This document shows, piece after piece, positions 34,169 through 46,384 of a stretch of DNA of 64,000 nt. Within the stretch, counting starts at the first letter, position 1, and each line of letters opens with the position of its first letter. Source of the DNA: Octopus vulgaris (taxonomy: Eukaryota); the NCBI GenBank assembly GCA_951406725.2, contig OX597814.1, positions 157,046,001 through 157,110,000 on the forward strand, in the 5' to 3' direction. Made by a program: the position numbers and the translations under genes. The notes below the pieces were generated by a model. It had not been told where the DNA came from. It was given only the letters and a program-made list of their open reading frames with translations, and ran no database searches.

Positions 34169-34612
34169 ATATATATAAACTTATACATATATATAAACAT
34201 ATACATATAGATATAAACATATATATATATATATATGAATATATATATATATATATATATATATATATATGTACATATATATAAACATATATATATACAT
34301 ATATATGTATATATACATATATATATGCACATATATATAAACATATATATATACATATATATGTATATATACATATATATACATATATATGTATATATTC
34401 ATATACATACATATATATGTATATATTCATATACATACATATATATGTATATATTCATATACATACATATATATGTATATATTCATATACATACATATAT
34501 ATGTATATATTCATATGATTGATTGATTGATTGATTGATTGATTCCAGTTCCAGCCTATGAGCTGTGGCCATGCTGGGGCACCGCCATTTGGTGTTGCTA
34601 CTTGGTTTTACT

Positions 34613-37600
34613 TCATGGGGGCTTTCTAGCAACTGCTATTTGGTGCATGAGAGAGTTCGATGCAGCTGCCCTCATCTGCCCCTCCTGCCGTGAAGTTGGT
34701 TCATCTGGGACACCTGACAGGAAGAGATCCAGCTTCATTTTAAAGACATCTGTATCCACCCCATGCAGGTCTCTCAGGTTCTTCGGGAGGACATTGAAGA
34801 GCTGTGGGCCTCGGAAGCCCAGGCTATCACAGAATCTTGTCCTACATCTTGATGGCAGGTTTGGAGTCCTAGGCACCACGCAGTGGCGCCCAGTTCTGGC
34901 ATTTGTGTAACTCTCGATGCCAAAGTTCAGGACACTTCCCTCCAGGATCTTCCAGATGTATATTATGGCATATCTTTCCCGCCTACGCTCCAGGGAGTAT
35001 AATTTTAATCTCTTGAGTCTTTCCCAGTAGCTTACATTCTGCATAGAGGCTATCTTCTTTGTGTAGCTTCGTTGGATCGCCTCAAGTTCTGTGATCAACT
35101 TGACACTGGATGGTGACCATAGCTGAGAGCAATAGTCAAAGTGGCTTAGGACAAGTGTCTTCCAGAGGACCATCATGGTTTCTTGTTCTCTTGTTCTAAA
35201 GGTTCTAAGAATCCAGCCAGCCAGCCGTCTACATTTCACTGTCAGTTTAGCAACATGTACATGAAAGGTCGCGTCATCACTCATGTGAATACCCAGGTCA
35301 CGCACTGAATGTGCCTCTGGGATTGCAATCCCTCCGGGTCCAGTGTATTCATTGGGTATTGCATTCAGTTTTGCATGCTGATAGTATAAAGCTTGAAACT
35401 TTCCAGCATTAAACTGCATGCTATTCTTTTCAGCCCACTTGTATATTTCGTCCAGCTCACATTGCAGGTGTTTAGTGTCCTCAGGGTTCTGTATTGCCTG
35501 TGAAACTTTTGTATCATCTGCATAACTTGTGATCGTGGATCTCTGCGTGGCTGAGGGCATGTCTGAGAGGGCCATTATGAACAGTAGTGGTCCCAAAACA
35601 GTGCCCTGTGGAACACCACTCATTATTTGCGTGTTAATGGAAGTGGCCCCATTGGCTACTACCACCTGACTTCTATTCTTCAGAAAGTCGTGAAGCCATT
35701 CTCCTAGTTTTCCAACTATGCCAAGATCACGCAGCCTGTGACATATCATTCCGTGATCGACTTTATCGAAGGCCTTTGCGAAGTCGAGATATATGACTTC
35801 CACATTTGAGTGGTTGAGCAGTTGTTTCAGCACCCAGTCATAGTGCTGCAGGAGCTGAGTTAAGCAGCTTCTTCCTGGTCGGAAACCATGTTGGGTGTCA
35901 GGCAGCAAGTCATTTTCTTCAAGGAAGGTGATTAGTTTCCTTCTGACTATTCGTTCCATGACCTTGCTGATGTGTGAGGTCAGAGAGATAGGTCTGTAGT
36001 TCTTTGCCTCCGCTCTGCTACCTCCTTTATGAATAGGGCATATTTTACCTTCCTTCAGTCCCCTTGGAAGTTTGCCAGCTGCAAGGAAGCTCTGAAAGAG
36101 GGACTGCAGTGGTCTTGCTAAGACTCTCTTACATACTTTTAGGAGGATTGCCGGGAATCCATCGGGGCCAGTAGCTGAGTCTATTTTCATTTCATCTATA
36201 GCCTTTATTACATCGTCTTCCTTTATCTCGATGTAACTTATCGTCGCCGCCTCTGATTCTATATCTGCAGTGGTAAAGAAGTCAGTTGGATTGCTGATTT
36301 GGAAATGCCCAAGGGGTGGAGTGAAAACACTCTTGAATTGTTCATTCAGTATTTCACTTACCCTCATTGGTTTTCCTGTGAGTGTGCCATCCTTTTCAAG
36401 GAGTGGCCCTATCCTACAGTGCACTGTAGCCGTTTCTTTGGCATACCTGTAGAAAGCTCTGGGGTTAGTTTTTATGTTGTCTATAGCCCAGGCTTCTTTG
36501 TCTGCTCTTTCCTTCTCATGGGAAAGTTGCAGACAATTTTCAATTTCCAACAGTTTTATTTTCAGGCGGGACTTTTCACTACTTTCAATTTGTTTGTTTA
36601 GGCGATTTGAAATTTTTGTACGCCGTCTCATTAAAATTTTCCTCTCTCTGGGGATTTTGTTCTTGTGTACAGTGGCCTTTCTCTCTGGGACACATTTGTA
36701 GCATATGGCTTGCATTACAGACATGAATTGTTGAAGTATCATGTCGATGTCCGGCGAGGAGAGACATTCAGGCCAGTTTTGTTTGAGGATCTCTTTCTCA
36801 ATTTGTTTCCAGTTTGCCTTATTGAAGTTCAGGCTGGAAAGATTCTGAGGGTTTCTTGTAGGCTGCATGTCCGTGCTCTCTTTTGGCCCGTACATGGTCA
36901 GCTCTACCATGTTGTGATCCGAGAGTAGTGTCGGTGTCACTTTCACATTATGGATGAGATCCATATTATTTGTGAAGCAGAGATCCAGTGTGTTACCTGC
37001 TCTGGTTGGTTGCAGTATTACTTGCTCCATGTACAGGGTGTTGGTGAGGTTCAGGAGGGACCTCGCCTGTCCACGTTCACATCTTGTCATTCCTGGGAGA
37101 GAAAGGCCCTCGGGCCATCTGACATTGGGCAGATTGAAGTCTCCCATGAGAAGTACACTTATGTGTTGTTCTAATGTGGTTAGAACTTCTTCTATTTTTA
37201 AAAGGCAGTCCTCGAACTTGCCCATATGACTTGGGGCATCTGGAGGGCGATATGTAGCACACACAACTACATCAAGTTGCCTTATGTGTACAATTAGTGT
37301 GTCACACACCGAGTTTGAGTATGACAAAAGGACCTGGGGTGTGAGGTCCCCACGGATGTACATAGCAACTCCTCCATGACTCCTTTCTTTCCTGTCGGTC
37401 CGTAGTACAACATACTGTGGTATGTGTAATTCCGCATCTGCTATGTCCGGTTTCAGATGCGTTTCTGTGAGTGCTATGCATAAGGCTTGATTGCATGCGA
37501 CAAAGTCTCTCAGGAACGGGACTTTTGTCCTGTTACTGTGTGTTAGTAAACCTCTGATGTTCAGTAGGAGCATCGAGGTGAGGTGTATGCTGTTGCCGGC

Positions 37601-37717
37601 GTTGTCCACCCTGGGTCCATCTGCTGTGGCGGTCTTGTGAACTGTGGGCAGTTCCATCTGCGAGCCTGAGCCTGATGGAGCCAGGTTAGCTGCTGTACAA
37701 TCTTTTGTGCCATGCAC
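34613..37717 (-). CDS. LINE ORF2: APE endonuclease + reverse transcriptase, 1034 aa, intact (non-AUG start)
   Basis: APE motifs NIRG, LTETHL, YRPP, GDFN, LDL, SDH; RT motifs [42 protein letters not shown]1-group C-terminus LYSLERRR. The annotated start codon is GTG. Confidence 0.97.
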   Translation of the reverse strand: MHGTKDCTAANLAPSGSGSQMELPTVHKTATADGPRVDNAGNSIHLTSMLLLNIRGLLTHSNRTKVPFLRDFVACNQALCIALTETHLKPDIADAELHIPQYVVLRTDRKERSHGGVAMYIRGDLTPQVLLSYSNSVCDTLIVHIRQLDVVVCATYRPPDAPSHMGKFEDCLLKIEEVLTTLEQHISVLLMGDFNLPNVRWPEGLSLPGMTRCERGQARSLLNLTNTLYMEQVILQPTRAGNTLDLCFTNNMDLIHNVKVTPTLLSDHNMVELTMYGPKESTDMQPTRNPQNLSSLNFNKANWKQIEKEILKQNWPECLSSPDIDMILQQFMSVMQAICYKCVPERKATVHKNKIPRERKILMRRRTKISNRLNKQIESSEKSRLKIKLLEIENCLQLSHEKERADKEAWAIDNIKTNPRAFYRYAKETATVHCRIGPLLEKDGTLTGKPMRVSEILNEQFKSVFTPPLGHFQISNPTDFFTTADIESEAATISYIEIKEDDVIKAIDEMKIDSATGPDGFPAILLKVCKRVLARPLQSLFQSFLAAGKLPRGLKEGKICPIHKGGSRAEAKNYRPISLTSHISKVMERIVRRKLITFLEENDLLPDTQHGFRPGRSCLTQLLQHYDWVLKQLLNHSNVEVIYLDFAKAFDKVDHGMICHRLRDLGIVGKLGEWLHDFLKNRSQVVVANGATSINTQIMSGVPQGTVLGPLLFIMALSDMPSATQRSTITSYADDTKVSQAIQNPEDTKHLQCELDEIYKWAEKNSMQFNAGKFQALYYQHAKLNAIPNEYTGPGGIAIPEAHSVRDLGIHMSDDATFHVHVAKLTVKCRRLAGWILRTFRTREQETMMVLWKTLVLSHFDYCSQLWSPSSVKLITELEAIQRSYTKKIASMQNVSYWERLKRLKLYSLERRRERYAIIYIWKILEGSVLNFGIESYTNARTGRHCVVPRTPNLPSRCRTRFCDSLGFRGPQLFNVLPKNLRDLHGVDTDVFKMKLDLFLSGVPDEPTSRQEGQMRAAASNSLMHQIAVARKPP

Positions 37718-45446: not shown

Positions 45447-45499
45447 GCTGGATAATCCGTCTATCCGTTTATCTATCTAATTATGTTCGAGAGAAGACA

Positions 45500-46384
45500 G
45501 GAAGATATTAAGGCTAATTAGAAGATAGAGTACTTGAAAAAGAAATATTAACAATATTAAAGTTTGTGTAAAAACGTTATTTGGGTAAAAACGTTATTTA
45601 ATCTTAAGGCTAATTAGGGGATAGAGTATCTGAAAATGTATTAGCAATATTAATATTATATTAGAGTGTGGATAAAAACGTTGTTTAATCTTAAGGCTAA
45701 TTAGGAGAGAGAGTATCTGAAAATATATTAGCAATATTAATATTATATTAGAGTGTGGGTAAAAAAAAAACGTTATTTAATCTTAAGGCTAATTTGGAGA
45801 TAGAGTATCTGAAAATATATAAGCAATATTAATATTATATTAGAGTGTGGGTAATATTAAACGTTATTTAATTTAATCTTAAGGCTAATTAGAAGACAGA
45901 GTATCTGAAAAATTATATATACAATATTAATCAATATTAACCGTTATTTAATTTAATCTTAAGGCTAATTTGACATTATTAATATTAAACGTTATTTAAT
46001 TTAATCTTAAGGCTAATTAGAAGATAGAGTATCTGAAAATGTATTAGCAATATTAATATTATATTAGAGTGTAGATAAAAACGTTATTTAATCTTAAGGC
46101 TAATCAGGAGATAGAGTATCTGAAAATATATTAGCAATGTTAATATTATATTAGAGTGTGGGTAATATTAAACGTTATTTAATTTAATCTTAAGGCTAAT
46201 TAGAAGATAGAGTATCTGAAGAATTATTAACAATATTAAAACAATATTAAACGTTATTTAATTTAATCTTAAGGCTAATTAACAATAATTATTAACAATA
46301 TTAAACAATATTAAACGTTATTTAATTTAATCCTAAGGCTAATTAACAATAATTATTAACAATATTAAACAATATTAAACGTTA
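45500..46384. repeat. Irregular tandem repeat (about 11 copies of AACGTTATTTAATCTTAAGGCTAATT, units ~45-95 bp); putative LINE 5' UTR
   Basis: Core motif at about 45506, 45589, 45676, 45768, 45859, 45940, 45987, 46079, 46169, 46249 and 46312. Confidence 0.9.

Follow-up and report, generated by a model that had tools for sequence, protein, structure and literature searches.

We analyzed a stretch of 64,000 nucleotides of Octopus vulgaris DNA (assembly GCA_951406725.2, contig OX597814.1, positions 157,046,001 to 157,110,000 of the forward strand), referred to below as the window and numbered from its first letter. The window contains a long interspersed nuclear element (LINE), family A, which is almost certainly a high-copy, recently spread element of CR1 type. 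Family A is a real, young and abundant LINE, and its first open reading frame (ORF1), combining a Myb/SANT-like domain with a CCCH finger, looks undescribed. ORF2, encoding an apurinic/apyrimidinic endonuclease-like domain (APE) and reverse transcriptase (RT), is read in the -1 frame relative to ORF1, which it overlaps. Within this overlap lies a conserved -1 slippery site that a preliminary description of the same DNA had missed; it is a better supported mechanistic feature than steering of insertion by the Myb-like domain. On balance we lean slightly toward a combined explanation, in which family A is a CR1-type LINE that makes an ORF1-ORF2 fusion by -1 frameshifting and inserts into TA arrays mainly through its endonuclease rather than through the Myb-like domain.

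Three copies of family A (A0, A1 and A2) lie in the window, together with three copies of family B (B1-B3), two of an older relative, family C, a distant APE-RT fragment (D) and a fragment that we take to be of the restriction-like endonuclease (RLE) type. A2 (41495..46382, minus strand, as are all its parts) is full length at ~4.9 kb. Its 5' region (45480..46382) consists of ~ten AT-rich (21% GC) monomers of 48-96 bp, which span ~900 nt upstream of ORF1, repeat a conserved core and likely form the 5' untranslated region and putative promoter. ORF1, read from its ATG (44548..45446), encodes a predicted three-helix Myb/SANT-like domain (45255..45446) and a C-x7-C-x8-C-x3-H finger (44863..44928; Pfam zf-CCCH E 0.008, below cut-off). 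ORF2 (41588..44707) lies in the -1 frame relative to ORF1, and an (AATC)n tail (41495..41519) joins the adjacent TA array. A1 (34516..38440, minus strand throughout) is truncated at the 5' end within the Myb motif; its ORF1 remnant (37561..38439) is open, lacks a start codon and retains the finger (37867-37932), and its ORF2 extends over 34613..37732. A0 (6903..7466, plus strand) is a 564-nt 3' fragment with 99.3% identity to A2 and TA on both sides. Family A thus displays LINE hallmarks: copies are 3'-anchored, subject to 5' truncation and end in a simple-repeat (microsatellite) tail.

In both A1 and A2, ORF2 comprises 1039 open codons from stop to stop, 1034 counted from a GTG, and encodes APE followed by RT, with PF14529, PF03372 and PF00078 over the Pfam cut-off in each copy. 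ORF1 is intact in neither: in A1 the truncation falls on the first Trp of the Myb motif, and in A2 a one-base frameshift near 45058 disrupts the reading frame. The preliminary description had presented A1 and A2 as tandem copies with intact 1034-aa APE-RT reading frames; the frames are indeed open, but the copies are ~3 kb apart and not in tandem. It had also described the Myb-like motif and the finger as kept between diverged copies. Both motifs do occur in both copies, but the divergence is not uniform: identity between A1 and A2 is ~99% over the last 900 nt at the 3' end but falls to 91-97% over the remaining ORF2 and to 62-88% over ORF1. This gradient (34516-38440 compared with 41495-45435) suggests either recombination between subfamilies or conversion.

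We next consider the relatives of family A. In a tree of 139 C-terminal RT segments (rows unnamed; loci L081-L160 not included), families A, B and C grouped with loci L001 and L002 in one 70-row clade (Shimodaira-Hasegawa-like approximate likelihood ratio test, SH-aLRT, 99). A and C formed a 6-row group (SH-aLRT 100), and B was placed elsewhere. We take family A to be of CR1 type from its motifs, with PHD-bearing relatives as a second basis. The named homologues were all from Octopus (three of the ten clusters looked up had names, in addition to P0001, P0081 and P0096). A2 was matched by thousands of contigs from four public runs carrying three organism labels. Summed depth over A2, which does not equate to copy number, was 15- to 77-fold lower toward the 5' end than at the 3' end in all four runs, and the break in A2 ORF1 was missing from most of the depth in three of them. 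A single 678-nt contig connects ORF1 to position 45600; loose ends at 45508-45582 are monomer sequence. Short 3'-end patterns had no match in viral or prokaryote contigs, megablast found none in phages, and alignment of ORF2 to viral contigs returned no relative. Loci L081-L160 are eukaryotic LINEs, yet the contigs that hold them have been assigned to bacterial or archaeal genome bins, a likely sign of host contamination. Of 169 CR1 families reported for O. vulgaris, 13 are active and account for 787 insertions with a mean length of ~4 kb (PMC13282606); family A is probably one of the active families. The available text of that paper gives no description of their ORF1, target or translation.

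Both A copies with extended sequence are embedded in TA-type arrays. A1 is bordered by arrays at 34167..34516 (3' side) and 38440..39064 (5' side), and A2 by arrays at 40786..41495 (3' side) and 46383..47472 (5' side). The 3' array of A1 has a 28-bp variant unit in common with 38440-38760; since the same unit occurs in both flanks, A1 split a pre-existing array. Family B comprises the 3' fragment B1 (28740..29664, minus strand) and B2 (33050..34075, minus strand; 85% identity to B3), both with TA on both sides, and B3 (47593..48680, plus strand), whose 3' end lies in TA and whose 5' end borders a duplicated stretch of 125 bp. In agreement with the preliminary description, which had all A and B copies abutting TA at their 3' ends and usually at both, a TA tract was found at the 3' end of 6/6 copies and at both ends of 5/6, the 5' end of B3 being the sole exception. 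The TA-tract background in the window is 0.18-0.22 per non-LINE position. The resulting p value (~4e-5 to 1e-4) is valid only for independent copies; the test was made on a window chosen after the fact, and ~1e-4 is optimistic because the copies are clustered and non-independent, with A2/B3 and A1/B2 sharing array complexes. At all six 3' junctions the tail is followed by (A)TAT, which does not fix the exact break. Such junctions would fit a nick at TpA with pairing of 1-2 nt. Local residence in TA is real.

We consider an active TA preference of family A somewhat favored. The strongest competing view, clearly less probable but still substantial, is that there is no active targeting: TA arrays would be generic sinks in which many transposons accumulate because the DNA is open, fragile or selectively neutral, or they would grow beside insertions. 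TA-type arrays make up 22% of the non-LINE DNA in the window, and they are adjoined by repeats of terminal inverted repeat (TIR) type at 2764-3952, 30431-30720, 6116-6441 and 50016-50453 as well as by an element at 39064-39446 that is presumably Helitron-like. The array pattern also differs between the two flanks of B1. Passive accumulation has been described for Waldo-A/B (PMC3812793), and Naiad Penelope-like elements share the (TA)n bias (PMC8557442). What speaks against a passive sink is that all six junctions are flush with TA, that A1 split an existing array, that B3 has its 3' end but not its 5' end in TA, and that the two other LINEs of the window, family D and the RLE-type fragment, are outside TA.

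Insertion into pre-existing microsatellites, as in family A, is known for Waldo, Mino, Kibi, Koshi and Dong; their targets are ACAY, AC, TC, TTC and TAA, unlike the TA of family A (PMC3812793). Naiads resemble family A in their (TA)n bias and their presence in Octopus, but have a GIY-YIG nuclease, a single ORF and an unrelated architecture (PMC8557442). Most target-specific LINE families belong to the early-branched, Tx1 and R1 groups, not to the CR1 group (PMC4640811). If the TA preference of family A holds genome-wide, microsatellite targeting would gain a LINE group absent from the list of target-specific ones, and the preference would help to account for the way TA arrays and transposons are nested in clusters in octopus genomes.

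We then examined how ORF2 may be translated, a process called an open question for LINEs (PMC3894237). ORF2 is in the -1 frame and shares 160-172 nt with ORF1. There is no AUG common to the copies near the ORF2 start (Met25 and Met53 in A1, Met41 in A2), and the candidate -1 slippery heptamer U UUU UUG stands 9 nt after the -1 frame opens in both A1 (37717..37723, minus strand) and A2 (44692..44698, minus strand). Two sets of loci were scored for heptamers of the form X XXY YYZ, any last base being permitted. Set 1 contained 80 metagenome loci plus A1 and A2, of which 37 without an APE region, 15 that were short or at an edge and 7 without ORF1 were removed, leaving 23. ORF1 and ORF2 overlapped in the -1 frame in 20 of these, and 17 of the 20 carried an in-frame heptamer compared to 5.0 expected from codon shuffles; controls gave 2/20 upstream and 2 and 3 in the other frames. 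Set 2, again with 80 loci and the same rule (30, 22 and 16 removed for the same reasons; 12 scored), yielded a -1 overlap in 7/12, with a heptamer in 6/7 versus 1.0 expected and in 0/5 of the +1 elements. Taken together (n=35), 27 elements overlap in -1, the in-frame heptamer is found in 23/27 against 6.0 expected, and none of the 8 elements overlapping in +1 has it.

All seven elements with a CCCH ORF1 for which DNA was available carry the heptamer 3-21 nt past the opening of the -1 frame, and this frame is open from the heptamer onward in every one of them. T TTT TTR is used by five families (joint probability 6e-8 under their own codon usage, calculated post hoc and without phylogenetic correction), and F-L is retained at the slippery position in homologues known only as protein. 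In L002 the first Met of ORF2 is codon 206, within APE. Because the overlap is in -1, a common AUG is missing and the heptamer is conserved, ORF2 is likely made as an ORF1-ORF2 fusion; judged from sequence, frameshifting probably operates here, and probably at low efficiency. A search for longer gene models returned four proteins of 159-291 aa without an ORF1-ORF2 fusion, which is weak evidence, and Rfam had no match in 33000-50500. Among more distant CR1-type loci, the heptamer in the overlap of the two ORFs is A AAA AAC in L005, L011, L013, L017, L026, L047 and L082, G GGA AAC in L009, and U UUA AAC in L015 and L088.

Translation of ORF2 by termination-reinitiation or by internal initiation near the APE start, with the U-run kept for a hairpin or a protein motif, is in our view an unlikely alternative. 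Reinitiation is documented in SART1 and L1 (PMC3894237, PMC2881922). In family A, ORF1 stops 160-172 nt into the overlap, near the first APE strand, and the A2 ORF1 stop overlaps the position of A1 Met53. Furthermore, no stimulatory structure was detected at the usual 5-9 nt downstream of any of the 22 sites folded (z -2.0 to +1.0; fold model without pseudoknots). A predicted hairpin does enclose the heptamer (44661..44717 in A2, minus strand; z -4.5), with local z values of -3.6 in A2 and -3.1 in A1. However, it is limited to family A, being absent from L001, L082, L089 and L090, while the heptamer excess is seen in both locus sets. The missing common AUG likewise favors frameshifting over reinitiation, as does the -1 frame, which is uninterrupted downstream of the heptamer in all CCCH elements.

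Together with the missing stimulator, several observations weigh against the combined explanation that we prefer. With regard to translation, 125/160 loci plus the controls could not be scored, 4/27 of the -1 elements lack a heptamer and 8/35 elements overlap in +1. The hairpin around the family A heptamer is strong and could by itself explain local conservation, and a slippery heptamer ending in G, as in family A, is a weaker form. Each copy has an in-frame AUG ahead of APE, which, together with the ORF1 stop near the APE start, makes reinitiation possible. With regard to the target, the TA preference is based on six non-independent copies in one window, the relative L002 has non-TA sequence downstream, and the older family C copy C1 (4845..5933, minus strand; sister to A) failed the strict TA test although it lies between degenerate TA tracts. 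A second family C copy, C2, is truncated. Finally, placement in the CR1 clade is indirect, since the tree is without reference elements.

According to the combined explanation, most ribosomes would produce an ORF1 protein of ~300 aa, consisting of the Myb-like domain, a linker, the CCCH finger and a conserved C-terminal segment. A minority would slip at the S-F-L codons ~50 codons ahead of the ORF1 stop and generate a Myb-CCCH-APE-RT protein of ~1300 aa. Nicking of TpA steps by the putative endonuclease, TpA nicking being a known activity, may be the main cause of insertion into existing (TA)n, the Myb-like domain not reading these steps. Reverse transcription would be primed by the 3' T of the nick, paired to the final 1-2 nt of the RNA tail. 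In support of a TA preference, family B shares the TA habit at 38% identity to A; for LINEs, the choice of target site has been ascribed to the endonuclease (PMC2881922). A slippery site conserved across dozens of CR1-type elements makes ORF2 translation testable by a short reporter.

The N-terminal domain of ORF1 very probably adopts a Myb/SANT-like fold. AlphaFold modeled the N-terminal 78 residues with a predicted local distance difference test score (pLDDT) of 90 and helices at residues 8-21, 26-36 and 43-61. The best fold-search matches were the SANT domain of DNAJC2 (Z 7.1, root-mean-square deviation (rmsd) 5.2, 68 residues aligned) and TEAD4 (Z 7.0), followed by RAD Myb (Z 6.9, rmsd 2.5, 58 aligned) and GT-1 (Z 6.4); the match types were Myb/SANT, TEA, GARP and trihelix. 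The match is only moderate, as Z stays under 8. Foldseek ranked the same folds first, with no match at E <= 0.001. The best Pfam family was PF13837 (Myb_DNA-bind_4), matched by 10/19 members, all below the cut-off (best E 1e-4; query score 20.5 bits versus a gathering cut-off of 27). Language-model neighbors of the domain scored 0.80-0.85, a lead only. Helix 3 was net basic in 11/11 rows printed, with Arg41, Lys49 and Tyr57 near-invariant, and because of this basic and conserved character nucleic-acid binding by the modeled domain is plausible. A sequence search of the PDB with the Myb profile returned ribosomal protein S8 (E 0.016 and worse), which we dismissed as chance, and the Atlas gave no usable match to the full-length ORF1 P0144, a complete 318-aa O. 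vulgaris protein.

A profile search with ORF1 pieces matched 57 proteins, the top homologues sharing the N-terminal domain, one finger and a C-terminal EQ-x-FL-x-MA motif. The Cys-Cys-Cys-His spacing of the finger is kept in homologues (PF00642, 20.2 bits versus a cut-off of 20.5). It also occurs in 22/32 lower-ranked ORF1 matches, 16 of them with at least three fingers, these matches being without genomic context. Finger arrays stand directly ahead of APE-RT in L001, L002, L082, L089, L090 and P0081, with PHD-like modules in L001 and P0081. The finger is therefore not specific to the family, and since the relatives bear finger arrays, often behind PHD, the Myb-like domain looks like a later swap. 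The CCCH finger looks older than the Myb-like domain, and an N-terminal domain swap is the simplest reading of the sequences: the Myb-like domain may have taken the place of an older N-terminal module, and the single finger may be left over from an older multi-finger RNA-binding array. The Myb profile did not match the N-terminus of L002 ORF1. P0001 was discarded as an ORF1 homologue because only the end of this lipin gene model is an ORF1 fragment. Both P0001 ("lipin") and P0081 ("fission process 1") are Octopus gene models holding LINE ORF1 or ORF1 plus APE, likely annotation artefacts.

The combination of a Myb-like domain with a CCCH finger had been proposed as an unusual ORF1 architecture, and the model and fold search uphold this, with both Pfam families below cut-off. 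A survey of 448 ORF1s of CR1/L2-lineage LINEs (Jockey superfamily) distinguished ORF1 types I-V and listed PHD, RRM, CCHC, Tnp22-like, esterase and zf/lz domains (PMC4120745). The words Myb, SANT, CCCH and frameshift do not occur in the available survey text, to which family A thus adds two domain types, Myb/SANT and CCCH. Family A ORF1 had no Pfam match to PHD, RRM, esterase, CCHC or Tnp22 with an E of 1 or lower, and neither did four homologues. Standing outside the described types does not exclude the CR1 clade, because ORF1 type varies within CR1. CR1/L2 elements have, like family A, two ORFs, an APE-RT ORF2 and a modular, shuffled ORF1, in which PHD is common, as it is in the relatives of family A; the N-terminal swap is in line with the ORF1 shuffling described there (PMC4120745). 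Our literature search, from which most subscription journals were outside, found no account of a Myb/CCCH ORF1 in LINEs, of CR1 frameshifting or of a CR1 TA preference in the text available; Repbase, Dfam, the Zenodo repeat library or supplements may hold the family.

A role of the Myb-like domain as the TA determinant, suggested in the preliminary description, is doubtful. Fused to APE-RT by frameshifting, or as ORF1 protein in the ribonucleoprotein, it would bind (TA)n and steer the nick into the arrays. The predicted fold with its basic, conserved helix 3 would suit this role, and frameshifting, if true, would let the ORF1 domains ride on the nuclease-RT and tether the Myb-like domain to the endonuclease. 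A targeting function of ORF1 protein is also implicated in the Dictyostelium elements TRE5-A and TRE3-A, whose APE-RT ORF2 is said to require a -1 frameshift and where the TRE5-A protein interacts with TFIIIB; these elements differ in belonging to the L1 clade, targeting tRNA genes through TFIIIB and residing in an amoebal host (PMC5911963). However, the best-scoring fold is that of a SANT domain, with every Z below 8, so that DNA binding itself stays a prediction, and other transposon classes occupy the same TA arrays. Moreover, family B is equally TA-resident and nearer to the PHD+CCCH-type relatives L001/L002 (47% identity). This lowers the probability of Myb steering without excluding it, because the family B ORF1 is not contained in the window.

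R2 likewise has a Myb-type fold in a non-LTR element, but places it within the RT protein and uses a restriction-like nuclease, whereas the family A domain heads ORF1 and would join APE-RT only through recoding. In TRAS, too, the Myb domain is part of the RT protein. Equally doubtful is a model in which the Myb-like domain would bind the element's own 5' monomer array for self-recognition or autoregulation and would take no part in choosing the target. The analogy is with Harbinger, whose Myb proteins bind their own element. The ~ten monomers upstream of ORF1 with their repeated core, and Myb_DNA-bind_4 as the best Pfam family, would be consistent with such binding, and PIF/Harbinger papers dominate the Myb/MADF literature matches, as far as listings go. 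Least probable is the full combination of a frameshift-built, R2-like targeting protein with captured Myb/SANT and CCCH domains on APE-RT, the Myb-like domain reading (TA)n, family A as the first target-specific CR1-group family and -1 frameshifting as a general route to ORF2 protein across much of that group.

Other features of the window were as follows. Elements with inverted-repeat bounds, of miniature inverted-repeat transposable element (MITE) or TIR type, lie at 2764-3952, 6116-6441, 9737-10474 and 50016-50453, three of the four adjoining TA arrays. A near-perfect 246-bp palindrome at 30431-30720 has a TA array on each side. The 39064-39446 element, located between TA tracts, starts with TC and ends with CTAG, with a short GC-rich stem ahead of the end; its Helitron-like label is our assumption from these termini. 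An ORF at 9968-10633 overlaps an inverted repeat and presumably represents a PIF1-type helicase fragment, possibly Helitron-derived. Family D (7637-8826) has a (TAAC)n tail, falls outside the CCCH clade and has no TA array. The fragment that we assign to the RLE type by its motifs (12480-13118) is C-terminal, with CCHC and a restriction-like nuclease motif and no notable Pfam match. Finally, a 125-bp direct duplication (99%; 47473-47597 and 49897-50020) flanks B3 and its 3' TA array. Duplication of the whole array around B3 was ruled out, as the interruption patterns of the two arrays differ. If the insertion produced the 125-bp copies, the target duplication would span 125 bp or more, with a 5-nt microhomology at the 5' junction.

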